A stretch of DNA of 64,000 nucleotides from a virus (IMGVR_UViG_3300005330_000016:13983-77982), one strand, 5' to 3'; shown: positions 2,800 through 26,086, counted from the first letter of the stretch. The notes: generated by a model not told the origin, from the letters alone. A program made the numbers and translations.

Positions 2800-3869
2800 C
2801 CGCCGCCACCGATGTACTGGATGCTTTGAGTGACCGAGCCGCTCTGAGCAAACGTCTTGTCAACACGCTGCACCCACAGCCGCTCAGTCAAGCCGAGCCT
2901 GGTCGCATTGGCTATCTCGTGGATCTGCCCAGGCCCGATGTTGTCGTTGCGCGGTGTCGTCATGGTCAGCTTGATAAGCTCGCGGTTCAACTCGCCAAGC
3001 CAGTAGCCCGCCATCGCTTGACATGAGATGCCCTGGCCCGGCGATGAGTTAGCTCTGCGCTCGATCATCGGGCTGTCGAAGCTATAAACCTGCGTCCCGG
3101 TAACTACGTCGGCTGAGCCTTCTTCGTACCAGACTCGCGGGTCGGCAAAGTCACCCACGGCATAACCGGTCACCCGAACAGCGTTGAACGCCTCTTGGAC
3201 GCTACGAGTGTTCTGGCCTTCACTGATGTCTTCGCCTTCGGTAAACGCCATATCCGTACCGCCCGATGGCACAGACGAAACTTGCGAGCGGAAGATACTG
3301 CCGCCAGTTGACTCAAACAGCCGGTAGCCGACCGAGATTGCGTCAATCCTCTGGATGTAAGCCAGCGCTGATTCGTTGCTGCGCCAGGCAAACTCTTCGG
3401 GCGCAATCGTGCCCATCGTCGTGCCGGTCCCGCCGATACTGCCGCCGTTTAGACCAAGCCCAACCATGCCGATTACAGCGCTCACGATGGCTTCATCCGT
3501 AGCAGGCCCGCCGGTTATATCCTCCAGCAGCAAGCCCTTATCGGCGTTGGTCGAAGCTATATCCGTACCAGTGATCTTGTACTGGTCTAGCAGGAACATC
3601 CGCCCTCTACAGTTGAGCGTCGTAGAGCGCGGATACAGGTTGTATTGAACCTGGGTGAGCAGCCCGCTAAACCACTGATGAGAGTCGCCACCCGCGTCTA
3701 CAGTGATGTCTACCGTGTCGTAGTAGGTTGCGCTGGGTGGTGGACCAGCAACGGTAACCGTAGCCGTGCCATAACTCATGTCATAACCAAGGCTCACCGT
3801 GGCAGAGATCGGCTGCTGAACCTGCGTGCCGCCTACCGTCACATTCAGATCCGCGATTCGGACAACCAT
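2796..3869 (-). CDS. Baseplate hub / tail protein (Mu gp44 / late control D-like)
   Basis: 357 aa after Dit-like gene; hub-like pattern (WFSGLLTQVQYNL, LNCRGRMFLL, AFTEGEDI, NAVRVTGY, TTPRNDNIGPGQ). Confidence 0.65.
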   Translation of the reverse strand: MVVRIADLNVTVGGTQVQQPISATVSLGYDMSYGTATVTVAGPPPSATYYDTVDITVDAGGDSHQWFSGLLTQVQYNLYPRSTTLNCRGRMFLLDQYKITGTDIASTNADKGLLLEDITGGPATDEAIVSAVIGMVGLGLNGGSIGGTGTTMGTIAPEEFAWRSNESALAYIQRIDAISVGYRLFESTGGSIFRSQVSSVPSGGTDMAFTEGEDISEGQNTRSVQEAFNAVRVTGYAVGDFADPRVWYEEGSADVVTGTQVYSFDSPMIERRANSSPGQGISCQAMAGYWLGELNRELIKLTMTTPRNDNIGPGQIHEIANATRLGLTERLWVQRVDKTFAQSGSVTQSIQYIGGGG

Positions 3870-4198
3870 CAGGCGTTGGTGATCAAGAACGTAGCCGTGC
3901 CGGTCACCGTGCCGTCAAGCTCAGGGGCAGGGCGAGAAACGGTCATCAGCACAGCCGTATGGGTGTCCAGCGTTTCGATGCTGAGCGTTTGCTCTTGCCC
4001 AATCATCCCGTTGAGACTGCCCCACACCGACGCGTTGTCCATGACGATGTTGACGTTCAGTTTCAACGGACTTCTGCCGGCCAGGTCAACGTAGAAGTTG
4101 TCACCACCGGGGATCTCGGTCACCGCTACTCGCGCCTCACGCGACTCCTGAAAGCTATCAAGGATCACCGTGAACGCAACCCCGCCGAAGGTAGCCAT
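3869..4198 (-). CDS. Distal tail (Dit)-like / DNA-circularisation N-terminal-like tail protein
   Basis: MATFGGVAFTV...VTEIPGGDNFYVDLAGRSP pattern directly after the tape measure. Confidence 0.55.
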   Translation of the reverse strand: MATFGGVAFTVILDSFQESREARVAVTEIPGGDNFYVDLAGRSPLKLNVNIVMDNASVWGSLNGMIGQEQTLSIETLDTHTAVLMTVSRPAPELDGTVTGTATFLITNA

Positions 4199-6733
4199 CT
4201 ACTGAGGCACTCCCGCCCCAAAGAGCGGTTGACCAGGCAACTGCGAGATCGGCGGCACATCGGTCAGCTTCTCGGACGTAACCATCGCAGCCGTCACTGC
4301 GTCTAGCATTTGCGTTTGCATCTGATCAAGCATCGCCTGATCGAACACGGCGGGGTTGTTGATGTTGACGATGACCGGCTGCTGTGGAATCGGTGAAACG
4401 CCCGTTTGAGTGCCAATGCCAAACGCTGCATCTGTTGGCACAGCCGTGCCCGTTGTTGACGTGAGGAAGTCGCTGAGCGTCGGCCCGAAATCAAGCTGGC
4501 CCTGAGCCACTCTGATGCCCGTTGTCGGAACACCCAGCACGCCCAGCGCATCCGTGTTGACGCCGTTTACCTGCGCTTGAATCTGCTTTTGTAGATCCGG
4601 GAAGCCGGCTTGGAATTGCTTGACGAAATCCTCGCCAGCGTCCAGCAATGGCGACGGCGGGCTGGTTGCCTGCCCCTTCTTCGCGTTATCTATGATCGAC
4701 TGAAGCGAATCAGCCTCAGACTGGAATGCAGCCCTGGTCTGTGGCGTGAACCCCTGGAAGTTAGCGAATGCCTGGTCAAGATTCTTGATGAGTTCAAGAA
4801 CCGGCACGACCTTTTCTTGAATGCCATTCCAGTTGGAATCCCACGCCCGCCGAAATATGGCGACGGCCACAATTACACCGGCGATGGCAAGGATCAAACC
4901 CACGGCAGGAGCGGCAGCAATCACCCAGCCAGCCGCAACCTTGACGGCTTGCAGGATCCACGTTGTGGCGAACGCCGCAAATTTCACAACCAATCCGCCG
5001 AGTGCGTTGCCAAGAACGGCGGCCATGATCACTGCGGCTGCGCCAACAATTACCACTGCCGCCCGAAGAGCGCCGCTCAGATCGCCGTTCAGTAACCTTA
5101 TGATCGTCTCAACAGCCCCGCCTACGGTGTCTCTAATGTTGTTCCAATTGGTTGCCCATGCAACGGCAAGAACGCCAACAGCGGCAGCAATCAAGATCAG
5201 CGGGCTAAACAGCGAGCCTAGAACAATCACGAACAAGCCGACCGCAAACAAGACCGGCCCGAGAACGGCGGCCAGGGCAGCGAACAACAAGATGTTCCTG
5301 CGCAGCGCTGGATCTAGCTCCAAGAACTTGTCTCGTACCGAAAGCGCTACGGGAATTACCTTCGTTTCCATGAACGCGATGGCATCACGCGCCGAAGTCT
5401 CGAAGGCCGGCCACGCCTGGATAGCGATAGCTTGCAGCGTATTCTTCAGCCTGAGAAGCGTCTGAATCACCGTGCCCTGCTTCTTTGCCGTTCCCTCAGC
5501 TAGCGCGGTGTTGTCTGCCCAGGCTTTGTTGGCCGCGTTCATCGACTTGTCGAACTCGTCAGCGCCAGTTGCCAGGCCGATAAGCACGCGAGTCAATCGG
5601 GCGTCGTTGATGCCTGCCGCATCGAGAGCTTCTACGATGCGCTCTGGCCCGCCCGCACCTTGCTGGATTCGGTTCAAGCCGTGGATAACTGCCTGGAACG
5701 CCGCGCCCGGATCGGTCTTGACCATCTCCTTGAACTGGTCGGCAGTGACGCCCGAGATGTCAGCGAACGCTTTCAGCTTGTCACTGCCGCCGCCGATCTC
5801 ACCTTGAAGCTTGCTCTGCGCCTCTTGGGTCTGACCAATCTCACGCTTGTACTTGTCGATCTGCGCAGCGTTTGCGCTGATCGCGCTCGCAGGCGTGTTG
5901 CGCCCAAAGGCACGCTGCCGCTCAGTCGCGGCCTGTAGTGACGAGCCAAGATCGGTCAGCTTGTCCGAATACTCTTGAAGCTTCGACTTCTGCTCGTCTG
6001 TCGTTTGTCCAGTATTGGCAACAGCCGCCGTGATCTGCAACAGGATGCGCTGAATCGCGGTACCGCCAGCTTCAGGCTCAACGCCAATAGCGCCGATGGC
6101 ACCCGAGATGCCCAAGATCTGTTGCTTGGTCAGGCCCAAGGCCGTCGCCGCGCCGGCGATTCTCTGCGTTACGTCAATGATCTGCTGTACGCCACCGTTT
6201 AGCTTGTTGCCCAGGTCGGTGATCGTTGAACCCAAGTTCGAGAACTCAGCCGCCGATGTATGCGTTAGCGTGGCGATGATACCCAACGCCTCACCGGCTT
6301 GGCCCGGATCAAGGCCGGTGTTACCTGACAACTGGGCTACGACCGCGACGAATTTGGACAGGTCTGTAGCCGCGATGCCCATCTGAGCACCAGCGGTGGC
6401 GATGTCCGTCAGCTTGCCGGGATCAAGACCGCCAGCCTGCTGCGTCTTGGCAAGCTCTAGCAGTTGGTTGTTTAGATCGGCTAGTTCCTGGGGAGTACCC
6501 TGAGCCGCACGCGCTACGTTGGCGAACTGGTTCTCGAACTCTGCGCCAAAGAACGCGACCGCGCCCACGGAAGCCAGGATCGGAGCAGTCAAGCCCTGCG
6601 TCAGGTTGGTGCCTGAGCGCTGGATGGACTGGCCGGCCTTGGTGATGGCGGCACTAACCGAGTTCAGCCCGGTAATAGCGCCGGTGACATCCGCGCCAAC
6701 GGTTACGAATAGTTCGGCAACAGGTACAGGAAT
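4199..6733 (-). CDS. Tape measure protein (TP901 family); start probably ATT at 6733, track start 6592 is internal
   Basis: Ala/Gly-rich TP901 core (FENQFANVARA, AGAQMGIA, EAGGTAIQRIL), hydrophobic segments; typical N-terminal VAELFVTVGAD lies in frame upstream of 6592. Confidence 0.9.
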   Translation of the reverse strand: MPVPVAELFVTVGADVTGAITGLNSVSAAITKAGQSIQRSGTNLTQGLTAPILASVGAVAFFGAEFENQFANVARAAQGTPQELADLNNQLLELAKTQQAGGLDPGKLTDIATAGAQMGIAATDLSKFVAVVAQLSGNTGLDPGQAGEALGIIATLTHTSAAEFSNLGSTITDLGNKLNGGVQQIIDVTQRIAGAATALGLTKQQILGISGAIGAIGVEPEAGGTAIQRILLQITAAVANTGQTTDEQKSKLQEYSDKLTDLGSSLQAATERQRAFGRNTPASAISANAAQIDKYKREIGQTQEAQSKLQGEIGGGSDKLKAFADISGVTADQFKEMVKTDPGAAFQAVIHGLNRIQQGAGGPERIVEALDAAGINDARLTRVLIGLATGADEFDKSMNAANKAWADNTALAEGTAKKQGTVIQTLLRLKNTLQAIAIQAWPAFETSARDAIAFMETKVIPVALSVRDKFLELDPALRRNILLFAALAAVLGPVLFAVGLFVIVLGSLFSPLILIAAAVGVLAVAWATNWNNIRDTVGGAVETIIRLLNGDLSGALRAAVVIVGAAAVIMAAVLGNALGGLVVKFAAFATTWILQAVKVAAGWVIAAAPAVGLILAIAGVIVAVAIFRRAWDSNWNGIQEKVVPVLELIKNLDQAFANFQGFTPQTRAAFQSEADSLQSIIDNAKKGQATSPPSPLLDAGEDFVKQFQAGFPDLQKQIQAQVNGVNTDALGVLGVPTTGIRVAQGQLDFGPTLSDFLTSTTGTAVPTDAAFGIGTQTGVSPIPQQPVIVNINNPAVFDQAMLDQMQTQMLDAVTAAMVTSEKLTDVPPISQLPGQPLFGAGVPQ

Positions 6734-10132: not shown

Positions 10133-10433
10133 CCACCTCAAACGTGCGCCCGCTGCTGACTTCTACGAGTCGGTCAGTGGGCAGCACGTCGGACCCCCAA
10201 GCGAACACGAAGATCCAGACCGAGATGCTCCGGACCTGTACCGCGTTCTCGCGCTCTAGTGGCGTGATGCCCTGGCGATAGAACTGGCATGGCAGAGTTG
10301 ACGCAACGGTATACGTGTCGGTCATACCGCCGGTGGTATCGGCTACCTGGCCCTTGCGGCTTACCTCAACGCTCGTGTTGAACGTCTGCTGAATAACCCG
10401 CTTGAGTACGTCCGTGTTACGAGGGATCGGCAT
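10071..10433 (-). CDS. Head closure / head-tail adaptor (SPP1 gp16-like)
   Basis: DTTGGMTDTY, DVLPTDRLV, RTFEVV pattern; position. Confidence 0.75.
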   Translation of the reverse strand: MPIPRNTDVLKRVIQQTFNTSVEVSRKGQVADTTGGMTDTYTVASTLPCQFYRQGITPLERENAVQVRSISVWIFVFAWGSDVLPTDRLVEVSSGRTFEVVSSATGSLDLACRVLAQEIL

Positions 10434-11071
10434 CAGGCGACGTACCCAACACCGCGACGGTACTGGTCGATAATGCTCGCGGCGCTCTTGGGCAGGTTCT
10501 TGCCCGCCACCGTCACCGTTAGCTCATTGCCGATCTTGTAGCTCTGCACGCCCGGTATAACCAGATCGCTCAAGCCAGGTCCGGCTTCGCCTTCCGCCAC
10601 CATCATGCACAACGTGGTGATCGGCATCGGAACGTTCGACAGCGTGCAATAGCCAAACTTGCCCGTCACCTTGACAGCATTCGTATACGACGGGAAGCTA
10701 AAGCGACCTTGCCACCATGACTTGCAGATGCTCGTGTACGGCTCGCCGTTCACTAGTGCGTTGATCGGCTCTAAATGGTAGTCGGTGCCCGCCGACCAGA
10801 CTGTCTCGTACACGCCGTCGCCGTTCGCGTCTGTCTCAAGCGTGGTTACGCTCAGGATGTCGTCTTCGGGCCGTAGCTCCCAGTAAGCATCACACGCCGT
10901 GTAGTAGCGAATCTCGTCCGAGTCGGTCGTGTAGAAACGCCTGCCTAGCGTGCGGTCGATCCATCGGGAAGCCGTCTGCAAGGCACGGTCTAACTGCCAA
11001 TCGGACTCGGTGTTAGTAATGCCCATGCGATCACGGAACTCGGCCACCGATGCGTACAGGTTTGCGCTCAC
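10433..11071 (-). CDS. Head-tail connector (gp6/gp15-like)
   Basis: LYASVAEFR, LQTASRWIDRTLGRRF, VTGKFGY pattern. Confidence 0.8.
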   Translation of the reverse strand: MSANLYASVAEFRDRMGITNTESDWQLDRALQTASRWIDRTLGRRFYTTDSDEIRYYTACDAYWELRPEDDILSVTTLETDANGDGVYETVWSAGTDYHLEPINALVNGEPYTSICKSWWQGRFSFPSYTNAVKVTGKFGYCTLSNVPMPITTLCMMVAEGEAGPGLSDLVIPGVQSYKIGNELTVTVAGKNLPKSAASIIDQYRRGVGYVA

Positions 11072-11250
11072 TGAGGCTGCGCCCCGCGTGTCTCGGCTCG
11101 TGCCGGCCCTACGTCAACGCCGTGGTACTCCAGGCACACCTTGCAGTGGAACAGGTCAATCAGCCTGCGTTGATGCTGACCGTGCACAAGCTCGTCAGAC
11201 AGCTTCACCTCTTGCCGCAGATACGCCCACTGGTGCTTGTGCTGAGTCAT
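11068..11250 (-). CDS. Small hypothetical protein (HxH...CxxC), start ATG 11250
   Basis: ATGA overlap upstream and GTGA overlap downstream. Confidence 0.55.
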   Translation of the reverse strand: MTQHKHQWAYLRQEVKLSDELVHGQHQRRLIDLFHCKVCLEYHGVDVGPARAETRGAQPQ

Positions 11251-12347
11251 GTAAATGCCGCCACCTTTGCCCACGAGTAAGCCTCTATGGCATCTGCTAC
11301 GTATTGCCTGTCCTGCTCGCTCAGCCACCAGCCAACCGGAATGGCGACCTGATGGCCCGAGAACTTGTCAACGCCAGGTAGCGGCCCGTTGTAGTAATCA
11401 AACCCTTTGTGCGTATCGTTGCGAGCGTGAACCTGGCCGGTCATAACGCCACGATCTGCCATGAACTTGATGAAGCCCTGCTGGTTTTTCACACGCAGCG
11501 TGAACAGCCACCACGAGCCTTTAGCGTCGGGTGGCGGGAACAACACATCTGGCCCGGCTCGCAGGTTCACCATGTACCAGGCCGCATTCTCCCGGTGACG
11601 GGAAACGACCCACGGCGCATGCGGCAGATTGGCTAGACCAATGGTCGCGTTCACGTCGTTCATGTGGTACTTGTAGCCGACTTCTCTGATATCCTGAGCG
11701 CACCGGAAATCTGCTGAAGACTCCCTATCTAGCCCATACCATCTGAGTAGCTTGGCCCGTTCGTAGTGCTTCTGAGGCACGAGAAGCGCCCCTCCGTCAA
11801 CCGTGGTCAGATGCTTGATCGCCTGGAAGCTCCAGGCCACATAGTCACCGTGGTTGTCGGGATCCACCATCAGGTTGTGCGCCGCATCTTGAATGACCGG
11901 CACAGGCAACCCTGGTGGCATGAGCCGCTTGTAGTCGCACGATCTGCCAGCCCAGTCTACGGCCATGATCGCCTTGGTTCGCCGTGTGATCTTCCTGAGC
12001 ACATCATCGGGGTCAATCAGGCCCGTCTCAGGATCCACGTCTGCCCATACGATCTTGGCTCGCCGCGTGACGATTGGGCTATTGGTTGCCGTACAGGTCA
12101 TGGGCGTGGTGATCACTTCGTCGCCCAGGCCAACACCGCACAGATGTAACGCCAGGTCCAGGGCTGAAGTGCAGGAGTTCATCGTTAGTGGCGTTTCCAG
12201 TCCCACCAACTCAGCGAATTGTCGCTCGAACTCCTGCACCTTCGGACCCTGCCCGATGAACAGACGGCCATCTTCATCGGGAGTCAGTGCTAGCCACGCC
12301 GCTACGCCGGCGTCTGCCGACATAAACGGACGAAACAGATCAATCAC
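11247..12347 (-). CDS. DegT/DnrJ/EryC1/StrS family PLP-dependent sugar aminotransferase (start GTG 12347)
   Basis: GPKVQEFE, NSCTSALDLAL, GDEVITTPMT, IQDAAH, WSFQAIKHLTTVDGG (PLP Lys), GYKYHMND. Confidence 0.95.
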   Translation of the reverse strand: MIDLFRPFMSADAGVAAWLALTPDEDGRLFIGQGPKVQEFERQFAELVGLETPLTMNSCTSALDLALHLCGVGLGDEVITTPMTCTATNSPIVTRRAKIVWADVDPETGLIDPDDVLRKITRRTKAIMAVDWAGRSCDYKRLMPPGLPVPVIQDAAHNLMVDPDNHGDYVAWSFQAIKHLTTVDGGALLVPQKHYERAKLLRWYGLDRESSADFRCAQDIREVGYKYHMNDVNATIGLANLPHAPWVVSRHRENAAWYMVNLRAGPDVLFPPPDAKGSWWLFTLRVKNQQGFIKFMADRGVMTGQVHARNDTHKGFDYYNGPLPGVDKFSGHQVAIPVGWWLSEQDRQYVADAIEAYSWAKVAAFT

Positions 12348-12787
12348 GGCTTGCTCCGGAAGTAAGCGTACGTGTCGTCTTCGCCTGTCTTGTCCCACCG
12401 ATCCGCGTGATGCGTCTTGACTGCTGCCGGGTTGTCTAGCTTCGCCTGCGCGTACAGCGTGATGCCTAACGCCTTAGCCTCATCCGCAAGCATATCTACG
12501 ATCTTGCCGCCCAGGCCACGGCCTATATGCTTGATCCAGACGCCCGCCGATGGATGCCAACCATCCTCTGCTTGCTTGATCATACCGAACCCCACAACCT
12601 CCCCATGCTGCGAGTACAGCCACGCATGCAGCTTGTCGTGGTTGGCTCGCCACCAACCCCACTGCTCTTCTTCGGTGACTTCGCGGTTATCGTTGCTGAA
12701 GCCCGCCCTGCCCTGGTTGCGAATGAGCCGCATGCAGTTGACGTGGCCCCAGGTTGTTACTCGGGTTGCCACCAGTGGAACGGTCAC
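12344..12787 (-). CDS. GNAT N-acyltransferase, PseH-like (start GTG 12787)
   Basis: RLIRN..VTEEEQWGWW, VVGFG, IGRGLGGKI (acyl-CoA motif A), DNPAAVKTH. Confidence 0.8.
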   Translation of the reverse strand: MTVPLVATRVTTWGHVNCMRLIRNQGRAGFSNDNREVTEEEQWGWWRANHDKLHAWLYSQHGEVVGFGMIKQAEDGWHPSAGVWIKHIGRGLGGKIVDMLADEAKALGITLYAQAKLDNPAAVKTHHADRWDKTGEDDTYAYFRSKP

Positions 12788-12987
12788 AACTCCCATGTGG
12801 TGATTACCGCCAAGCCGGTCGCAATCGGATGCCACGTCCACCACACCGGGGCGGCTTCGGTCGCCAGTGCTCGCGTACAGCGCATGCAGATAAGCTCTGC
12901 CGTCCACGGCTCAACGAGCGGTATCACGTACTCGGTGCTCTTGCAACGTGGGCACAGGCTGATCACAGGTAGCTCGCTCAGCTTCAC
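12784..12987 (-). CDS. Small Zn-ribbon protein
   Basis: CPRC...CMRC; coupled on both sides. Confidence 0.55.
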   Translation of the reverse strand: MKLSELPVISLCPRCKSTEYVIPLVEPWTAELICMRCTRALATEAAPVWWTWHPIATGLAVITTWEL

Positions 12988-13733
12988 GTTGAGTAGCCTC
13001 CTGACACGTTCAGCACAGTGCCCGTCACGTAGTTGCTCTCGATCAGGTACATCACGGCCCGCGCCACGTCCTGTGGTTGTCCGAAGCGTCGCATAGGAAT
13101 CTGACTCAGCACCTTCTCGCGGTTCTCTTGCGAGACTTCGCTAAGCATGCCAGTGCGGTCTATGAAGCCCGGCGCTACCGCGTTGACCGTGATGCCTTTG
13201 TGCGCTAGCTCGATGGCCGTAGCCTTAGTGAAGCCGACCAGGCCCGCCTTGCTCGCCGCGTAGCTAGCTGGCCCGAGTCGGCCATCCAGCCCAACAACGC
13301 TCACGATGTTGACGATCCTGCCCCAGCCGCGAGCAATCATGGCCGGTAAGGCGATCTGTGTAATCCGGAATGTTCCGGTTAGGTTTACGTCAACAACGTT
13401 ACGCCAATCAGATAACGTGGTCTTACCAACGGACCTACCAGCGGTCACACCGGCGTTGTTGACCAGAATATCGCAGTCGAGTTCGGTCAGGATCGGGTAC
13501 TCGTTGACCAGCGCCACCTTGAGGATCTCGGCGTCACCACCGTAGGCACGTACTTCGCGCATGGTCATCTCTGCCTGGTCGCCACGAGTGTTGTATCCGA
13601 TGGTCACAGCCGCGCCTTGGCGTGCTAGCTCTAGCGAGATCGCTCTGCCGATGCCGTGCCCGCCGCCCGTTATCAGCGCATGTCGCCCAACCAACGGCAG
13701 CGGTGGCACGAGTACGTCAATCAACGCTGTCAT
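12984..13733 (-). CDS. Short-chain dehydrogenase/reductase, FabG/PhaB-like
   Basis: TGGGHGIG, NNAG, YAASK, NAVAPG, VSGG motifs. Confidence 0.95.
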   Translation of the reverse strand: MTALIDVLVPPLPLVGRHALITGGGHGIGRAISLELARQGAAVTIGYNTRGDQAEMTMREVRAYGGDAEILKVALVNEYPILTELDCDILVNNAGVTAGRSVGKTTLSDWRNVVDVNLTGTFRITQIALPAMIARGWGRIVNIVSVVGLDGRLGPASYAASKAGLVGFTKATAIELAHKGITVNAVAPGFIDRTGMLSEVSQENREKVLSQIPMRRFGQPQDVARAVMYLIESNYVTGTVLNVSGGYST

Positions 13734-14305
13734 GGGCGAGCGATAGCTACGATGGCGTTGATCCAGATCGGGTCGTTGCCGAAGCCGTTTACCGTGCCTT
13801 CGATGTAGTCAAAATCCCCATTGTAGGCGTCGGTGAACTTGCCGATCTTGCCAGGCACGTTGGGTGTCACAACGCAATGCCCGCCGATGGTGTCACGTTC
13901 AAGCCTCCCCGCTTGACTCCAAAAGATCTGTCTGCCGTAGTACGACTGAAACCGGAACAGCAGCACCTTACCCGGCCAGGTCTGCGCTCCACGGCGCATC
14001 AAGGAAACCGCATCGGGCGTCCAGATGTCGTCGTCGTCGTTCAAGTGGATGTAGTCACCCTTGGCCTGGGTGATCGCGTAGTTGTGCTGGCAATGCCCGA
14101 AGCAATGGTGCCCTGCGTCCAGGCTTAGATAGCGAAGCCCCAACCCGGTCGTCAGTGCTTCTACACCGGGCAACTGGCCGTCGTGCGTATCTCCTACGAC
14201 GATAACCTCATCACCTGAACCGAGTTGGGGCTTGATGCTAGCCAGGCAACGCGCTAGTGGACGATCTTCCCTATGCGTTGCGACGATGAAAGAAAAGGTA
14301 GTCAG
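13730..14305 (-). CDS. Glycosyltransferase family 2 (start probably CTG 14305)
   Basis: In-frame N-terminus TTFSFIVATH..LARCLASI..EVIVVGD upstream of track start; YIHLNDDDD (DxD) motif. Confidence 0.85.
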   Translation of the reverse strand: MTTFSFIVATHREDRPLARCLASIKPQLGSGDEVIVVGDTHDGQLPGVEALTTGLGLRYLSLDAGHHCFGHCQHNYAITQAKGDYIHLNDDDDIWTPDAVSLMRRGAQTWPGKVLLFRFQSYYGRQIFWSQAGRLERDTIGGHCVVTPNVPGKIGKFTDAYNGDFDYIEGTVNGFGNDPIWINAIVAIARP

Positions 14306-14601
14306 GGCTTGGCTGTTGGAGTCCTGCGCTCTTCGACTACCGGATCTTCGCCAAGCGGCTGACCCATCTGGATCGGCTCGTTCTGAGACGGCTGGTCTGC
14401 CTTGGGCTTGCCCTTGATCTCGTGCGGCTCGCCAACCTGAACCCAGCGGTCAGATCGCGCCTGGTAGACGTAGGTCTTGCCGCCAGCGGTCAGTGGCCGG
14501 TCGCGGTCGGCGTTCACGTCGTGCTCGTGCTCAACGGTGCCAACGAAGCCGCCGTTTGGGTCGTACAGGTTCACTGGATACATCTGCTTGTCTTCAGCCA
14601 T
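14302..14601 (-). CDS. Hypothetical protein after capsid gene
   Basis: AGGAGG RBS, 99-aa ORF. Confidence 0.6.
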   Translation of the reverse strand: MAEDKQMYPVNLYDPNGGFVGTVEHEHDVNADRDRPLTAGGKTYVYQARSDRWVQVGEPHEIKGKPKADQPSQNEPIQMGQPLGEDPVVEERRTPTAKP

Positions 14602-14747
14602 GTGTACCTCCTGACCAATTGTAATGCAGTGGATATGCCGGGCAGGCGAACACGGTAGCCAGGGGGAGGGAGACTACCGTGTCGCCGCTCAGCCCGGCGC
14701 GTGCTTCGTGCCGTAAAAGCACCACGCGCCGGGCGATCACGAGAGGC

Positions 14748-15330
14748 TTACAGCCCGGTGACCTTACAGAAGACCGTTGGTCGCCAGCCGACGAAGGCCA
14801 CGCGCAACTCAGCCAGAATGGTCTGCATGTTGCGGATGAACTGGTCGTTGACGGTGCCAACGCGAACCGCACCCTGCTCGCGGTCGTAGAGGGTGACGCC
14901 CTGGTTGAAGTCACCGATCAGGCCGGTGCCCGCTGGGATGTTCGGATCCAGCACGACCGGCAGGCCCCACAGGGTATCTGCGCCGCCCAGGCTTGGCGGG
15001 CCGAACAGGTAGGTACCGGGGGTAGCAGTAGCCGCCGACTCACGGCTGAGTCGGATGTTCTGCCAGTCGGTCGGGTTGAGCACGAACGCGGTAGGTCGGC
15101 CCAAGCCGGTCCATGCCACGTAAGTGCGGCCCTTGTACAGCGCGTCAACGCCAGCGTCAGTGCCCTTGCCCACAACGCCGATGCCGGCCAGGTTCAAAAT
15201 GCCAGTCAGGTTCTCACCTGTGCCGTCACCGCTGACGATCTGGCTCTGAAGCTTCTGCTGAAGACCGAACAGCAAGCGCTGGTCGATGATCGAGCGGATG
15301 GCCGGGGCGTCAGACAACATGCGGTTGGTG
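14748..15330 (-). CDS. Major capsid protein (HK97 fold), exon 2
   Basis: TNRMLSDAPAIRSIIDQRLLFGL..GDGTGENLTGILN..LWGLPVV..GDF..FIRNMQTILAELRVAF. Confidence 0.95.
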
Positions 15331-15571
15331 CATCTCTTAGCGTCAGGCTCTTTATCCTGACTTCTCCTCGTTTCCAAGGAGTGTGGGACTATATCTTCAC
15401 CCTGGTAGGGTGCCGCGCACTCGTGGGGCTTTACCGTCCGGTCTGGACTCCATGCCCTAGTCTCTGAACCTTCCGACCATTCCTGATCGGCTTGGCTGCT
15501 GATTACCTGTACGGCTTCCAGCAATTCACGCGGTAACTACAGCGTATTACTACGCTGCGCGGCCAGATTCG
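15331..15571 (-). ncRNA. Group I self-splicing intron (IA-like, no ORF) in major capsid gene
   Basis: P AATTGCTGGAAG, Q AATCAGCAGC, R GTTCAGAGACTAG, S AAGATATAGTCC; U at 5' exon end, terminal G; splicing restores HWIPV-TNRML in frame. Confidence 0.93.
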
Positions 15572-16302
15572 ACCGGGATCCAGTGAGCCATGGTCCTGAC
15601 GGTTGCGGTCTGCGTGCTGTATGCGAGCGCAGACTCAGGCTTGACACCGCTACCACCGAGAGCAGTCGCGTCAAAGGCCGTAGCCTCAGCGACGAACGCA
15701 GCAGAGTTGGTGAACGTGGATTCACGCACGTACTCAATGGTGTCTGAGTCGGTCGGGCTGCGCGGGATCAGATCCAGCACGTTGAGCGGGTTCTGGAGGA
15801 TATCCAAGAAGCCCGGCTGGTGGTCTTCCAAGACGAACGCCTGACCCGAAGTGGACGAACCACCGCGCAACAGGGTCTTCTGGTTGGCCCAGTCCAGCAT
15901 GCTGGTGCCTTCGGCCATCGTCACATCAAGGTTGACGCGGGTCAGGTTGCTGTTGAACAGACCCGACATCTTGGCTTCGCGGTAGTCCACGCTGCCCAGG
16001 AATTGCTGGCCCGGCGAAAAGCGCCGGCCTTCGGGAGTGGTGTTGTCACCAGCCGCCGATGGTCGGTTCTGCGGCTTGCTGTGCCGATCCAGCGATTGCA
16101 GGATGCGCTTGCGCCGCACCTCAGCGTCTTCCAGGGTGACGAGCCGTGCTTCAAGGTCGTCAACCTCTTGGAAGATCTGCTTGACGTGCTCGCGCTCTTC
16201 CTGCGGCATCTTCTCGGGGTCGTCGTATCTCTTTTCGATCAGATCGGCTTCCTGCATGCGAGTCTTGATCTCGGCAGTAGCCTCTTGAACGGTCATAGCC
16301 AT
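15572..16302 (-). CDS. Major capsid protein (HK97 fold), exon 1 including delta domain (start ATG 16302)
   Basis: N-terminal coiled coil, then LDLIPRSPTDSDTIEYVRE, KPESALAY, VRTMAHWIPV; spliced product is 437 aa. Confidence 0.95.
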
Positions 16303-16309
16303 GGTGGAG

Positions 16310-17170
16310 CTAAACCTCAATGCCACGCTGGCGCAGCCTGCGCCGGCGAAGCTCGAACGCCAAAGACATGTCAGCTTTTTCGTCGGCTGGCACGTCAGTG
16401 CTGGGCGGTAGTTCCGGCTCGCTTTGCTTGTGGGCCAGGACCGCTTCAGCATCGGAACGCACGGCGTCCATCTCAGAGAACGTCTCCAAGAGCGCTTCAA
16501 GGTCTGTCCGCTTGCTATCGGTCAGGTCAAAGTCACCTGCCTGTAGCTTGGCGAGTAGATCGCGGCAGCGCTCACGGAACGCAGCCACGGTATCAGTCAG
16601 TGTTTTGGTCAGGTCGGCCAAACTCAGCCGCGAGTAGTCAAGCGTATCAACGCTCTTCATCTCGCGCATAAGCTTCTCGTAAGTGCGAATCACACCTTCA
16701 AGGTCTGTCTCAGACTTGACGGATTGCACTCGCGCCTGGTCGTTCATGGGGATGCTGACTACGCTGTTTTCCAGCAAGTCAATCTCTTTGAGCAGCCGCG
16801 TGTCGCCTTCGTTGGCCCACTCCCAGGTCTTGGGGATGTAGCCGATACTCATAGAGCGAATCGCGCCACGCTTGAGAAGCTTGTAGGCGTCCAGGCCCTG
16901 CTGGGTGTCGATGATCTCCCAGGTTCCGAGTAAGCCCTTGCCGTCTTCCTTGATCGACTTCTCGATGCCGATGGGCGAACGCGGGTCGTGCTGCCAGAGC
17001 AGCGGTCGGTCGCGGTTGGTGTTGGTCAGCGTGCCCTTGAAGGCACCCTTCTCGATGATGTCGCCGCCGTGGTCTTCGTTACCAAAAGTCGATGCGTAGG
17101 CGGTGAAAGTCATGGCGTCGGAGCCGTCTTTCACGTCAACCAGCGTTAGCGGAATGGACTTGTAGAGCAC
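16310..17170 (-). CDS. HK97-type prohead protease (peptidase S78)
   Basis: YASTFGNEDHGGDIIEKGAF, LLWQHD, SMSIGY, ENSVVSIPMN. Confidence 0.95.
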   Translation of the reverse strand: MLYKSIPLTLVDVKDGSDAMTFTAYASTFGNEDHGGDIIEKGAFKGTLTNTNRDRPLLWQHDPRSPIGIEKSIKEDGKGLLGTWEIIDTQQGLDAYKLLKRGAIRSMSIGYIPKTWEWANEGDTRLLKEIDLLENSVVSIPMNDQARVQSVKSETDLEGVIRTYEKLMREMKSVDTLDYSRLSLADLTKTLTDTVAAFRERCRDLLAKLQAGDFDLTDSKRTDLEALLETFSEMDAVRSDAEAVLAHKQSEPELPPSTDVPADEKADMSLAFELRRRRLRQRGIEV

Positions 17171-17220
17171 AGTAGGCCGGCTCCCTTCGTGAGCGCAGGA
17201 TGGGCCGGGGAACGTGGTGC

Positions 17221-17874
17221 GCCGGCGGTTTTAGAATTGGTCTTGAAAAAGTGTTGACAGATCAATGAGGAAGGTGTAAGTTACGCATATGGCAAACGCA
17301 GCTTGGGAAGTGACCTTCGTAGGTCGATTCGATTCTCGCCCTTACGCAACTGGTCTTACGGAAGATCAGGCCCGTAACGTTATTGATTGGCTTCAAGATC
17401 GTGATGAGGGTGCGCTTTACGTAGCTAGCCCGATGGATCTCGAAGAACCCGACGATCTAGACGATTGGGAGGGTCCAGAAGCTCTCGGTTATTCCGAGTC
17501 GGACCCGGAAGCTTTTGACGAGATGGTTCGTGACGATATGCGGGGAGCCTTCTAATGGCTTCCCAGGAGGTTCAGACGATGGAACAGCTACTAGAAGAAC
17601 TCAAGGTCACAGCCAATCGAGCCGAATACGCCTTTCTGGAAACACCCGGTGACATCGAGAGCAAACGAAAGTTCATGCTCTTGGCGTCTCACATTGACGC
17701 TGTGGTGCGCCGCTTCCAAGGTGAAGCGGCATGAACAGCAAGTTCTGTCACAACTGCAAGGGCACCAAGGGCTGGACGTGCCGCGTGTGCGGTCGTCAGG
17801 TCTGTGCCCACTACTGCGGCAACAAGGTTGGCACGATGGCTACCTGTGGCAAGTGCAGGATGAGCAAACCGTAA
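17221..17874 (+). other. Antisense early cassette 2: promoter plus acidic ORF 17289-17555, ORF 17579-17734, Cys-rich ORF 17731-17874
   Basis: GCCGGC 17221, TTGACA 17254, TAAGTT 17277, ATG 17289. Confidence 0.75.
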
Positions 17875-17976
17875 CGTGTTCCGGTATGTTCCGGTATGTC
17901 CAAGAGTAAGAGTAACCGTAACGTAGTTACTTACTTAGGGTGTTCCGGTATTACGGAATGGACTTTGAGAACGAAA

Positions 17977-19101
17977 TCAGGCTGTTTTCGAGAGGATTAG
18001 CTGGGGCTTGTTCCGGAATCTTTCGATGGCATCTTCCCAAGCATCCGGCCATCTCCACCAGTTGTTCTCAAGGCTGTGCTCGGTCATAACCGTCTTACGG
18101 GCGTTCCGCTGCAAGGTCTTCCGTAGCTCTTCCGATTCGATCAGCCGTGAGATCGCAACCACGAGTTCTTCGGTTGTCTCGGCTATCAGAGCGTCGTGAC
18201 CGTCTGTAGCCTCACGACCGTACACAGTAGGGCTGACAACGCTCACAGCGCCGCCTAGCGTGGCTTCGTACCACTTGATGCAGGACTTGCTGTGATTGAA
18301 GCCCATTGGCGCTACGACGCAGCAGGCTATGTCTATGTTGAGCCATGCTCGTGGGTACTCGGGTAGCTGAAGCCACGGCAGCGAGTGCCTGCGCTCTGCG
18401 GAAATCGAATCGTACAGCTTGCCTGGGATGAAGCCCTGAATCACGAACTGCACTTCGGGGTAACGCTCAGCGATGATCGACCAGGCTTCGGACAGTGCTG
18501 CCACGTCGATCTGCTCACGAGCACCACCGGCCCAGCCGACCGTCAGCTTGCCCTTTAGCTCAGGTATGCGGTCGCAGCCGCGCAACGTCTCCTTGAACCA
18601 GCGGGCGTCAATACTGTTGGGGATCACGTAGACGGGTGGCGGATTGTCGCCAGCATGCGCCTTGACCACGGTTGCCAGCCGTTGAGTTGTGACGGTGACA
18701 CCATCGCACACACTCAGCAGCCGGATCCGCTCCTGCCTCTCCCAATCAAGCTGTGCGTAGCCCTTGGCTGCTTCTGTCTCGAACAGCCGCGACTGGCGCG
18801 GGATGATCATGGGCGAGAACACGTCGTCATCCACCTCGTACAACCAGGCCAGCCCGGCCTTGTGGATAATGTTGATCCAGCGTTCACCGATATCCTTGTG
18901 CGGCCACACGATCCTGGGCGTGATGATCGCGTCGTAGCGACCCGCTGCAACTAGCGGCAGTACCACGTCAGCCTTGTCTTTGTGTGCCCACTCGGCTACG
19001 AAGCCACGCTTCTCTAGCTCAGCGAACGGTTGCCAAACGCGCCACAGCGAGCAGCCGGTCTCGTCGCCAAGTAACGCCAGGACTCTAGGTGCGCGGTTCA
19101 T
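17977..19101 (-). CDS. Glycosyltransferase family 4 / GT-B (start ATG 19101)
   Basis: GCSLWRVWQP, YEVDDD, VTVTTQRLA, VYVIPNSID, VGWAG, DIACC..FNHSKSCIKWYEA. Confidence 0.9.
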   Translation of the reverse strand: MNRAPRVLALLGDETGCSLWRVWQPFAELEKRGFVAEWAHKDKADVVLPLVAAGRYDAIITPRIVWPHKDIGERWINIIHKAGLAWLYEVDDDVFSPMIIPRQSRLFETEAAKGYAQLDWERQERIRLLSVCDGVTVTTQRLATVVKAHAGDNPPPVYVIPNSIDARWFKETLRGCDRIPELKGKLTVGWAGGAREQIDVAALSEAWSIIAERYPEVQFVIQGFIPGKLYDSISAERRHSLPWLQLPEYPRAWLNIDIACCVVAPMGFNHSKSCIKWYEATLGGAVSVVSPTVYGREATDGHDALIAETTEELVVAISRLIESEELRKTLQRNARKTVMTEHSLENNWWRWPDAWEDAIERFRNKPQLILSKTA

Positions 19102-23342: not shown

Positions 23343-24581
23343 TCTTGAAAACCCCTTGACAGATCTAGAGCGGCGGGCGTAAGCTACGGACATGAGCAAC
23401 CACATCGAGAACCTGAGCGACGAACTGGTAGCCGCGAACGCCGAGAGCCTGAGCCTTCAGGACGGCATGATGAGCCTGGTTAGCTACCTGATGAGCGACA
23501 AGTTCGCCACTGACCAGAACGTGAACGTAGCCGATGTCATCCTGCGGATCTCTGAGACGCTGAGCGCAGCACGTGACGAGCGTGACGCGGCACTGCTCAA
23601 CGAGCGCGGCCCGAAGCCCGTAGCAAGCTTCAAAGGCTGGGCTTGCCCGATCTGCCGCGAAACGCTGCAAGACAGCCCGATCTGGGACGCCGACGCCAAG
23701 GCTGAGCGTCGGATGCGAGATCACTGGACAGCCAACCACAAGGCCCGCTAAGCGGGCCGGAAAGGCAAACGACCATGAAGCAACCAATGACGCCCGAGAA
23801 GCTCGCTCAGAACGCATACCTGAAGCGAGAGCGCATGTACCAGATCATGCACATCCGCGAGCAGGCGAACTATGACGAGCACGTCGTGGACTTCGCCGGC
23901 GAGCCAGTTAGCCTCAGCGAACTGGCCGAGTTGTGGGTGCCGGCATAACGCCGGCATTCCCTATTGACAGATCAAGCGCGCAGGAGTAAGTTACGAGTAT
24001 GAACAGCACCCAAGCAGCCAAGCTCCAGAGCTTTGAAGAACTCGCCGCCCGCCAGATCGACCGACTGGCCCAGTCGCCCGAGAGCAAGATGGTTCAGAAC
24101 GAGACTCGCGGGTTCCGCCTGACTTGGACGAAGGCTCTGGTCACCAAGTACGGATGCGACAAAGCCGACATCAACGCAGCTTGGAATCGAGCGAAGGAGG
24201 GACGATGATCCCAACCTACACCGTGATCTACGGATCACACACCCTCAACACCGAGTGGGTTCTCGGAACCTACTCCACCATCGAAGCCGCAATGCGGCAG
24301 TTCGATTCCCTCTCTTCCATCCGCCACAGCGACGAGTACGTCGTTGTTCACACTGAGTGGGCCTAGTTGGCCCACTCGCGGAGCAAGCCATGACCACCAA
24401 CAAGTCACCGTGGGAACTTCTAGCCTACGCCCAGGGCCGCAAGGCTTACATGATCGGGCGAACGCTCGCCAGCAACCCGTATACGTCCGGCTCGGATCTC
24501 GCACAAGCCTTCTACGATGGATTCGATGACGAGATGCACCGACCTGATCGCCCGCTTGACCCGCCGGACTTGCCACTCTAG
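23323..24581 (+). other. Antisense early cassettes 4/5: two promoters plus ORFs 23392-23751, 23999-24208, 24205-24366, 24390-24581
   Basis: TTGACA 23356/TAAGCT 23380/ATG 23392; TTGACA 23964/TAAGTT 23987/ATG 23999. Confidence 0.75.
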
Positions 24582-26086
24582 TGGCTCGTGCCGTTGACCA
24601 GCCGTGCCGTGATGCGCCTGCGCTGATTGTTCTGTAGCTTGTCGAGATCCACGGCCATTCCCTCAGCCGCCGTGTCAACTACAGCCTGAATAGCCTCAGC
24701 GAACGCATCGCCACGAGCCTTACTGCCAGCAGGAGCACCACTTGGACCACCGGGCGGCAGCGTTGGCTTACGGGCTTCCTGTAGCGCTAGCTGTTGAGCC
24801 GCTTCCTCTGCGGGATCCGTCACGCTGTCGTCTACCTTGACCCACTTGCCCGACGTAGGCACCCACAGCGAATCATCGCCAGCCAGCACGTCGAAGCCTA
24901 GCTCTCGCAGGCCCATCTCACGAGACATCAGCCCGCCCATCACGTCTGCCAGAATGCGGGCGTGCTTGGCGTTCTCGTCTTCCTGCAACGAGCGCACCTC
25001 GCTCAGGTCGTGAGCAATGACGATACGCCGGTCGCTCGTGAAGTCTTTGCGCAGCTTGCGGTTCCACTTGGCTTCGTCCATCACCCACAGCGGAACGATG
25101 GTTAGCTCCGTGAAGTTCTCGCGCACTTGCCTTGCAGAGGCATAGTTGCTGGTCTGCTCCAGCCCGACGCCTAGCCGGGCAACGAGAGGATCAACGCCCA
25201 TAACGGCTGCGATTCGAGTCTCGGGCACGTCGTGCAGGATCTTCAGGTTCATCTGCTCCGGCGAGAAGCCAAACTGATCCATATCGGCTCCACCCGTTAG
25301 CACGCTCACCGTGCCGCGCCGCTCGCCACCGAATGCGTTCGCAATGGAGTTCTTTAGCTCTTGTACCTGCTTCTCGCTGAGCATCGTCTCAGAGGGTATT
25401 TTGGCGACCAGGCCCGGCGTGCCAAAGTTCCTGAGCAAGGCGTCTGCATAACGAGTCGCTTCGCCGTCTGAGGCAATCTCGCGGATCAGCCGCTTCAGTG
25501 GCGCGATGCCCTTGCGTACGTCCAGCGGGTCAACGCCAAGCTTGAAGTGGATGACGTTCTCAACCGGGATCTGCTCGGGGCCGCGACCGTCGAACCGATC
25601 CATCTCGTAGAAGTCGATGAAGTTGCTAGAGCCGCGCCCGGTTTTGGGCCGCATAACGCTCGGGCTGACCGGCCATAGCTCAACGACGTTACCCGCGCCT
25701 GATCGGACTTTGAGTAGGTAAGCGTTGCCGTCAATGTGCCGCGCCCAGGCCGACCACCAGCGGATTTCGTTCAGGTCTAGCTCGGGATGCGGCTCATCGA
25801 ACAGGTCAAGGATTGGATGCTCGAAGAGCGGCTCACGCTCCTGCTTGGCGTCCAGCTTGTAGACGCGCAGCGGAGCTTCGATGCTGGCAAAGGCCAGGGC
25901 GCGCAAGCAAGCGAAAACAGCCGAGTTGCCGTCGCCGCCGTACTCACCGTCGTATGGTCGCGTGCCTGCCGTGTAGACGAGATGGTTTACGTACTGCCAG
26001 TTGACCGTAGGATCGGCCGGCGTGAACTTCTGCTCGATTGACTGGCCGGTGATAGCCGACCACGCGGCTTGGAAGATGTTAGCCAC
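24578..26086 (-). CDS. Portal protein (HK97 family)
   Basis: AVFACLR, DGNAY, ELWPV, VIHFK, GIAPL, RNFGTPG, RIAAVMGVDP. Confidence 0.95.
   Translation of the reverse strand: MANIFQAAWSAITGQSIEQKFTPADPTVNWQYVNHLVYTAGTRPYDGEYGGDGNSAVFACLRALAFASIEAPLRVYKLDAKQEREPLFEHPILDLFDEPHPELDLNEIRWWSAWARHIDGNAYLLKVRSGAGNVVELWPVSPSVMRPKTGRGSSNFIDFYEMDRFDGRGPEQIPVENVIHFKLGVDPLDVRKGIAPLKRLIREIASDGEATRYADALLRNFGTPGLVAKIPSETMLSEKQVQELKNSIANAFGGERRGTVSVLTGGADMDQFGFSPEQMNLKILHDVPETRIAAVMGVDPLVARLGVGLEQTSNYASARQVRENFTELTIVPLWVMDEAKWNRKLRKDFTSDRRIVIAHDLSEVRSLQEDENAKHARILADVMGGLMSREMGLRELGFDVLAGDDSLWVPTSGKWVKVDDSVTDPAEEAAQQLALQEARKPTLPPGGPSGAPAGSKARGDAFAEAIQAVVDTAAEGMAVDLDKLQNNQRRRITARLVNGTSH

Follow-up and report, generated by a model that had tools for sequence, protein, structure and literature searches.

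What are the enzymes of a sugar pathway doing among the head genes of a tailed bacterial virus? The question is raised by a 64,000-nucleotide stretch of viral DNA (the window, meaning the whole stretch that was analysed), which corresponds to bases 13983-77982 of the 77,982-bp IMG/VR record IMGVR_UViG_3300005330_000016, 100% complete according to CheckV. On the minus strand of the window lies a late operon of the classical HK97 type, in which we observed the order GT4 glycosyltransferase, prohead protease, HK97-type capsid, orf99, GT2 glycosyltransferase, FabG-like short-chain dehydrogenase/reductase (SDR), Zn-ribbon protein, GNAT N-acyltransferase, DegT aminotransferase, orf60 and head-tail connector (Table 1). 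An earlier note on this DNA had proposed a phage-encoded amino-sugar set in the head module, and both the identities of the genes and their coupling to structural genes agree with that proposal. We consider it very probable that a functional module for the tailoring and transfer of an amino sugar is encoded here. Whether this cassette decorates the virion is a more evenly balanced matter. The reading that we favour, with equally divided confidence, is the glycosylation of a virion protein with an N-acyl 4-amino sugar that the phage tailors itself, starting from a host precursor; both the acyl group and the acceptor are putative.

The genes of the cassette are tightly linked. Using a script, we found seven successive 4-nt NTGA overlaps, running from orf99 through GT2, SDR, Zn-ribbon, GNAT, DegT and orf60 to the connector (in order CTGA, ATGA, GTGA, GTGA, GTGA, ATGA and GTGA); the earlier note had described NTGA coupling for the chain from GT2 to the connector. 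Neither a sigma-70-like promoter nor an intrinsic terminator was detected on the minus strand between 10000 and 19800. Since seven overlaps join these genes with no such signal between them, the cassette enzymes are expected to be co-transcribed and translationally coupled with the head and neck genes. The domain calls and the gene order of the earlier note were all recovered as named with Pfam and NCBIfam. Its chain of genes was placed right after the capsid gene; the chain is present, and its position has to be corrected, as a 146-nt spacer and orf99 intervene. The hairpins of this spacer could set the ratio of capsid to enzyme expression, whether as an attenuator, by mRNA processing or through mRNA stability. 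The G+C content is even across the cassette region (0.58-0.61).

A scan of IMG/VR with the DegT protein returned 80 loci, designated here by L-numbers. In about 20 of the 80 (L001-L019 and L032), a DegT copy 54-83% identical to that of the window lies directly upstream of a connector homologue. In all contigs of sufficient length (L005, L006, L007, L011-L014, L017 and L032), the order is (GT4)-protease-capsid-orf99-GT2-interior-DegT-connector. A search of IMG/VR for the cluster beside capsid genes had been proposed as a check; its outcome is positive, with the cassette occupying this slot between capsid and connector in about 20 related contigs. DegT diverges in step with the structural genes on either side of it: with a connector at 87% and a protease at 79% identity, its own identity is 81-83%, and with flanking genes at 54-63% it is 59-63%. 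DegT has therefore resided in the slot for a long time.

The interior of the slot varies. An SDR-(Zn)-GNAT interior is common to the window, L011/L012 and L013/L014. The closest relatives (L032 and L001), together with L005 and L017, possess no SDR and a different type of GNAT. In L032, L005 and L017, we observed a second DegT-like gene with the Lys replaced by His (SFFFSHLL); the L017 copy, which was scanned, has RfbH as its best NCBIfam match (2.4e-60). In the DegT fold, His in place of Lys is a mark of ColD/E1-type 3-dehydratases, which act on nucleoside diphosphate (NDP)-4-keto-6-deoxyhexoses. L017 also carries an FkbM methyltransferase, a weak match to a NanM-like sugar O-methyltransferase and extra GT2s. 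By homology, these sister cassettes support a deoxysugar chemistry on a host-made 4-keto-6-deoxyhexose. Overall, the comparison of the contigs shows an apparent exchange of cassettes between fixed ends, GT2 and DegT, as in O-antigen loci, and since the interior is exchanged in this manner the lineage probably displays differing glycans. Inside the sugar cassette of L017, an N6/N4 DNA methylase (PF01555, 1.5e-29) is encoded at L017:7266-7994, and the capsid-connector slot therefore takes unrelated cargo too.

Outside this lineage, a single 331-aa open reading frame (ORF) in L026 (L026:5426-6421) fuses GT2 to GNAT, and such a 'Rosetta-stone' protein links the two activities. The trio GT2-GNAT-DegT is found again in a second lineage of phages (L021-L028), where several GT2s accompany it, and in the bacterial loci L086 and L122. 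The 484-aa protein that precedes the trio in L021-L028 was considered as a capsid: Pfam, PHROGs and phage tblastn were negative, the AlphaFold2 (AF2) model had a predicted local distance difference test (pLDDT) score of 33.6, and ESM-Atlas gave a lead to SU10_MCP clusters (0.96-0.97), so that its identity as a capsid is unconfirmed. A connector-based scan of IMG/VR for close relatives devoid of the cassette returned distant ones only, among them L165, with no insert, and L166, with an unrelated 4.7-kb insert.

The DegT protein matches PF01041 over profile positions 21-359 of 360 (214.7 bits, cut-off 19.8) and keeps the Schiff-base Lys in SFQAIKHL (SFxxxK motif). Its best PDB relatives are 4zwv/4xau (1.6e-68), CalS13 (3.6e-54) and ArnB (~1e-33), followed by PseC, WecE-type enzymes and perosamine synthases. 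The profile, the catalytic Lys and these relatives uphold the initial assignment as a DegT aminotransferase. Since the nearest solved relatives are all C4 aminotransferases of NDP-4-keto sugars, the enzyme probably acts at C4 of such a sugar. Its scores lie below every NCBIfam equivalog cut-off for C4 aminotransferases, DesI included (PseC, 153.6 versus 423.5; ArnB, 129.2 versus 631; WecE-type, 115.6 versus 375). In the complete 77,982-bp genome, we detected neither a 4,6-dehydratase (PF16363), whose absence had already been remarked in the earlier note, nor a nucleotidyltransferase (PF00483). As no dehydratase is encoded, the keto-sugar must be supplied by the host.

From these elements, the following pathway can be proposed. 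The host would supply an NDP-4-keto sugar, most likely dTDP-4-keto-6-deoxyglucose via RmlA/RmlB. Judging by homology, DegT would transaminate C4 to give an NDP-4-amino sugar, and GNAT, by homology and gene linkage, would N-acylate the amine. The NADPH-type SDR would provide or finish a 3-hydroxyacyl group, for example by reducing acetoacetyl-CoA or an N-acetoacetyl intermediate, which is the least certain step. The short, soluble GT2 and the GT4 would then act in the cytoplasm while heads are assembled, transferring sugars to a phage protein, and from the context of the genes the major capsid protein or orf99 would be the candidate acceptors. More tentatively still, a lineage of uncultured soil phages may keep a glycan locus swappable by recombination, with which a host keto-sugar is turned into rare N-acyl (possibly 3-hydroxybutanoyl) 4-amino sugars that coat the virions.

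Table 1. Features of the head region and late operon (positions in the window; aa, amino acids; MFE, minimum free energy).
Feature	Position	Strand	Match or remark
GT4-like (GT-B) glycosyltransferase, 395 aa	17977..19164	-	PF13524
Prohead serine protease (S78)	16310..17170	-	PF04586 Peptidase_S78, 1.3e-30
Major capsid protein exon 1 (HK97 fold)	15572..16302	-	PF05065, N-terminal part
ORF-less group I intron in capsid gene, 241 nt	15331..15571	-	Rfam RF00028
Major capsid protein exon 2	14748..15330	-	PF05065, 2.6e-26
Capsid-orf99 spacer	14602..14747	-	Two long G+C-rich hairpins, no U-tract; MFE -75.7 kcal/mol, z = -5.2
orf99, conserved small head-region protein, 99 aa	14302..14601	-	Homologues between capsid and GT2 in at least 8 relatives
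Short GT2 (GT-A) glycosyltransferase, 191 aa	13730..14305	-	PF00535; CTG start overlapping orf99 stop
Classical SDR, FabG/PhaB-like ketoreductase, 249 aa	12984..13733	-	adh_short, 160.5 bits
Zn-ribbon protein, 67 aa	12784..12987	-	CPRC...CMRC; weak PF08271 match, below cut-off
GNAT N-acyltransferase, 147 aa	12344..12787	-	PF00583, 1.2e-7
DegT-family sugar aminotransferase, 366 aa	11247..12347	-	PF01041
orf60, small Cys/His-containing protein, 60 aa	11068..11250	-	ATGA and GTGA overlaps at its two ends
gp6-like head-tail connector, downstream boundary of cassette	10433..11071	-	PF05135, 3e-4, 21.6 bits (cut-off 21.2)
Large terminase	28848-30341	-	
Portal	24578-26086	-	
Tape measure	4199-6592	-	

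Two glycosyltransferases accompany the cassette. When read from 14293, the GT2 covers PF00535 positions 1-154 (43.2 bits, cut-off 23.3), including the nucleotide-binding N-terminus. Its reading frame contains no ATG, GTG or TTG before 14173, and as the profile match reaches that far the CTG at 14305 is required as the start. At the same spot, L005 and L017 have a GTG; an ATG is found upstream in L011, and a GTG two codons upstream in L013. No canonical GT2 start was observed there in L006, L007 and L032, and the GT2 of L032 probably starts with CTG (near 3803-3820). In L007 (near 5160-5180), the orf99 frame ends in CCA AAA AAG TAG, which contains the -1 slippery heptamer A AAA AAG, with the GT2 in the -1 frame; an orf99-GT2 frameshift fusion is conceivable in this contig. 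Homologues of the GT2 form a compact family of 103 clusters, with identities of 32-67% (only two of them below 41%), mostly of about 195 aa and almost all metagenomic. By sequence, only weak generic GT-A matches were obtained for the GT2 in the PDB (SpsA, TarS, PglI), and none for the GT4.

The GT4 reaches 28.3 bits against PF13524 (cut-off 25), with PF13692 and PF13439 below cut-off, and its real start is probably at about residue 22. Copies 60-75% identical stand upstream of the protease in L005, L007, L012, L013 and L032, and the enzyme is 23-26% identical to glycosyltransferases of Arthrobacter and Streptomyces phages. In one of these, the cultured 82-kb actinophage Streptomyces phage Zuko (MN204493.1:1319-3384), a UDP-glucose dehydrogenase and a GT4 homologue (23% identity to the window's GT4) lie just upstream of the terminase/head genes, which makes Zuko a possible experimental model. 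The GT4 had been described as lying just before the protease: it is upstream, at a distance of about 800 nt that holds small opposite-strand ORFs. These plus-strand ORFs lie within 17171-17976 and include one at 17289-17555 for an acidic 88-aa protein. Elsewhere, the two genes are adjacent in L007 and separated by a 3.7-kb insert in L013.

Enzymes of these kinds could instead remodel the host envelope late in infection, with lipopolysaccharide/O-antigen, teichoic acid, capsule, S-layer or a pilin or flagellin glycan as the target, which would block superinfection or keep progeny off debris. GT2+DegT+GNAT modules do stand in the polysaccharide-type bacterial loci L086 and L122, serotype-changing phage glycosyltransferases are well known according to a passage of review text, and lipid-linked intermediates on the inner side of the membrane are accessible to soluble glycosyltransferases. 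However, no membrane glycosyltransferase, flippase, polymerase or ligase accompanies the cassette, neither the cassette nor its immediate surroundings revealed a Wzy, flippase or Gtr-like partner, and the cassette proteins contain no transmembrane segment (maximum KD19 1.46; none above 1.5), in contrast to the Wzy/Wzc locus of Aphanizomenon phage Yong-DA. That phage, which gave a DegT match, was set aside as not comparable because of this polysaccharide locus. Moreover, a complete genome without an integrase makes lysogenic conversion unlikely, and the genes are coupled to head and neck genes in a slot fixed beside the capsid across the lineage, and are not a separately promoted moron. We therefore regard envelope remodelling as unlikely.

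The role of the SDR admits a different chemistry for the same target. By NCBIfam, the enzyme is just above the cut-off of the FabG subfamily NF009466 (223.9 versus 222) and below those of TIGR01830 (227 versus 297.75) and TIGR01829 (203 versus 302); its PDB matches are FabG and acetoacetyl-CoA reductases (1e-40 to 1e-55), in agreement with the FabG/PhaB-like character first assigned to it. The motifs TGGGHGIG, VNNAG and S...YAASK are intact. After strand beta-2 it has an Arg (YNTRGD) and no acidic residue, which by the usual SDR cofactor rule predicts an NADPH-dependent reductase. Since the SDR was found only alongside a window-type GNAT (window, L011/L012 and L013/L014) and bears an NADPH-type signature, the 3-hydroxybutyryl donor suggested in the earlier note has indirect support, and this role is the weakest step of the proposal and the least certain. 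Alternatively, the SDR might oxidise a common NDP-sugar at C4 or C3 to feed DegT, which would make the pathway self-contained, with GNAT merely acetylating the product. The lack of an encoded dehydratase would be explained, and SDR, GNAT and DegT would follow an oxidise, transaminate and acylate logic, as in WbpB/WbpE/WbpD or ArnA/ArnB. However, the relatives devoid of SDR keep DegT and GNAT, so that DegT is independent of the SDR, and a FabG-type enzyme with Arg after beta-2 points to a reductase and not to an NAD+ oxidase. Known NDP-sugar oxidases are GFO/MocA proteins or extended SDRs. An oxidase is thus a rather improbable assignment, and we retain the reductase in the favoured pathway.

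A third possibility is that the products act on a cytoplasmic target other than the virion (either a small molecule or a host protein, counter-defence being one example) or that the genes are partly decayed cargo. The GNAT bears on this question. Its family alignment displays a conserved N-terminus, IRN...(I/V)(T/S)..EQ..WW, and copies 52-54% identical were found only in the SDR-bearing L011-L014. The PseH-like label initially given to it was not borne out: NCBIfam gave no match at E 0.01, and a 15-sequence profile searched against the PDB retrieved YncA, RimI and N-terminal acetyltransferases first. By its profile, the GNAT is as close to N-acetyltransferases of proteins and small molecules as to those of sugars, and the lack of a canonical GT2 start would fit decay. 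On the other hand, all the genes are intact, with 52-83% amino-acid identity over deep divergence and catalytic motifs kept, and the GT2-GNAT fusion and the sister cassettes with deoxysugar enzymes tie the GNAT to sugar chemistry. We judge such a target, or decay, to be improbable.

Hypermodification of DNA, in which the sugar would be put on modified bases before packaging so as to evade restriction, is very improbable: late timing fits a modification before packaging and phage glycosyltransferases are known that attach diverse glycans to DNA (Pyle et al. 2024, as summarised in text citing it), but the complete genome contains neither a ThyA-like hydroxymethylase (PF00303) nor a C5 methyltransferase (PF00145), and the cassette, with its coupling to orf99 and the connector, belongs to the head module and not to the replication module. 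A search of the genome for TET/JBP (PF12851) gave no match, but its controls were likewise silent. Taken together, lysogenic conversion, a membrane polysaccharide and DNA glycosylation are disfavoured because the genes they require are absent, the enzymes soluble and the cassette coupled to head genes. With these targets disfavoured, a cytoplasmic protein acceptor is the best candidate left. We infer decoration of the virion from the position of the cassette, its soluble enzymes, the absence of lysogeny or DNA-modification genes and the variability of the cassette.

Compared with known systems, the cassette appears to be like mycobacteriophage virion glycosylation, the amino-sugar logic of giant viruses and the WecE/WecD, Arn and Vio pathways, and by the tests run it is a member of none. 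Freeman et al., in Cell Host Microbe in 2023, reportedly dealt with mycobacteriophage virion glycosylation. The mycobacteriophage systems are not known to comprise more than glycosyltransferases and a methyltransferase, and use host nucleotide sugars. The virus studied here is likewise a tailed phage with its own predicted glycosyltransferases, and adds an aminotransferase, an N-acyltransferase and a reductase, in a swappable capsid-connector slot with 4-nt coupling. According to passages of three papers (PMC12619734, PMC12582341, PMC13313380), the phages Che8, Corndog and Myrna decorate capsid and tail-tube subunits with their own glycosyltransferases (and methyltransferases), and the presence of phage glycosyltransferase genes has already been used to predict glycosylated virions; in a passage of the first (PMC12619734), the capsid glycan site is a C-terminal extension.

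Giant viruses share with the cassette a DegT-type aminotransferase, an N-acetyltransferase and glycosyltransferases, by which they make rare 4-amino-6-deoxy sugars for their own particle. Those with amino-sugar pathways also encode a 4,6-dehydratase. They are viruses of eukaryotes, whereas the window belongs to a 78-kb bacterial virus with no dehydratase or nucleotidyltransferase. Mimivirus possesses viosamine and bacillosamine pathways and an autonomous glycosylation (PMC4691112, PMC9614988).

Among cellular pathways, the viosamine island of Pseudomonas syringae contains vioA, vioB, vioR, vioS, acp, vioM and vioT, and its FabG-like VioR is needed for flagellin to carry N-(3-hydroxybutanoyl) viosamine, as deletion of vioR abolishes the modified sugar (PMC3927599). 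Both loci pair a C4 aminotransferase and an N-acyltransferase with a FabG-like 3-oxoacyl reductase and a transferase. However, the ketoacyl-ACP synthase (KAS) III, acyl carrier protein (ACP) and methyltransferase of the island are absent from the cassette, VioT is a 1,173-aa transferase, and the window's DegT is below the WecE/VioA-type NCBIfam cut-offs; the likeness is one of enzyme types. C4 transamination followed by GNAT (WecD) N-acylation is shared with WecE/WecD (dTDP-Fuc4NAc, enterobacterial common antigen), and C4 transamination with transfer by a GT2 (ArnC) is shared with ArnB/ArnA/ArnC (Ara4N), ArnB being among the best sequence matches of DegT. In contrast, the DegT identity is well below the equivalog cut-offs of both, and these cellular pathways feed membrane-bound lipid-linked glycans whereas the window's proteins are all soluble.

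Several observations weigh against virion glycosylation as proposed here. The glycan and its acceptor are both putative, and the host supply of the sugar precursor is assumed. The nearest solved DegT relatives, AtmS13 (4zwv, 4xau), CalS13 (4zas) and ArnB, are enzymes that we take to use 4-keto-pentoses, so that the product could be a 4-amino-pentose and not viosamine. The GNAT is of a generic type for which the acetylation of a protein is in principle conceivable, the co-occurrence of SDR and GNAT amounts to about three independent lineages only, and the GT2 has a CTG start only. Set beside the mycobacteriophages, neither the GT4 nor the GT2 gave a Mycobacterium phage match by tblastn against 50,697 phage records, which should include Che8, Corndog and Myrna, and the capsid does not possess a Ser/Thr-rich C-terminal extension like the one that bears the mycobacteriophage glycan. 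As for the other putative acceptor, the tail of orf99 contains few Ser/Thr, and orf99 has no recognisable fold and no match in Pfam, PHROG, NCBIfam, Atlas or Foldseek.

The published cases of virion glycosylation among tailed phages come from a small number of mycobacteriophages, and virus-made rare amino sugars are known from eukaryotic giant viruses. If the glycosylation of virions by this cassette is correct, this virus would be the first example of a tailed phage that tailors an amino sugar of its own to decorate its particle; ordinary-sized bacterial viruses would tailor their own sugars and vary them by cassette exchange beside the capsid gene, giving 'glyco-serotypes' of phages analogous to bacterial O-antigen loci. 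Consequences would follow for the stability and adsorption of phages, for the way in which hosts and predators recognise them, and for how the immune system recognises therapeutic phages. The cassette is also a compact set of soluble enzymes (aminotransferase, N-acyltransferase, reductase and a 191-aa glycosyltransferase) for glyco-engineering.

Regarding the capsid gene itself, the Phage_capsid domain is split over two frames, and removing 15331-15571 restores an in-frame 437-aa capsid. RF00028 matches at 15364-15581 (74.7 bits, gathering score 50), and the resulting exon junction, HWIPV|TNRML, equals that of the intron-less L011 capsid. No group I intron was detected by Rfam in 8 relatives; since it is absent from these contigs, the intron was probably inserted recently. 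Capsid introns are known in cluster J mycobacteriophages (PMC3706429). Exon 2 is 63-89% identical in relatives. A decayed prophage was considered and rejected, as the split of the capsid is an intron and the seemingly truncated GT2 N-terminus is conserved and in frame. The neighbouring orf99 is predicted to fold as a five-strand beta domain (residues 8-56, AF2 pLDDT 77-90) with a disordered, variable C-terminal tail rich in Pro/Glu/Lys/Ala (pLDDT below 50), and is a candidate decoration protein or glycan acceptor. Two other small proteins belong to the chain: copies of the Zn-ribbon protein (41-44% identity) adjoin DegT or GNAT in L001, L013, L014 and L032, and copies of orf60 (73-75% identity), which has no family match in Pfam or NCBIfam, were found in L001, L002 and L018.

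Downstream of the connector follow head-completion, gp10-like, gp17-like, tail assembly chaperone and tape-measure genes. With neither tyrosine nor serine integrases in the complete genome, the phage is a complete, apparently non-integrating 78-kb siphovirus. Megablast of the region against the deposited phage records gave no match; tblastn of the portal gave at most 33% identity, and no cultured relative or host emerged from these records. A DegT search of GTDB species genomes revealed no prophage of this lineage. The best match to DegT in that search (53%) lies on a 3-kb contig of a Vicinamibacteria metagenome-assembled genome, with GT2-GNAT-DegT, and this contig is probably itself phage. 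Outside the window, genome positions 2995-4988 (minus strand) hold a gene for a Laminin_G_3 (tail-fibre-like) protein and, after it, a 238-aa ORF weakly resembling GT2 (19.7 bits, below cut-off) and a Methyltransf_11 methyltransferase, which may form a second glycosylation/methylation pair in the tail-fibre region.

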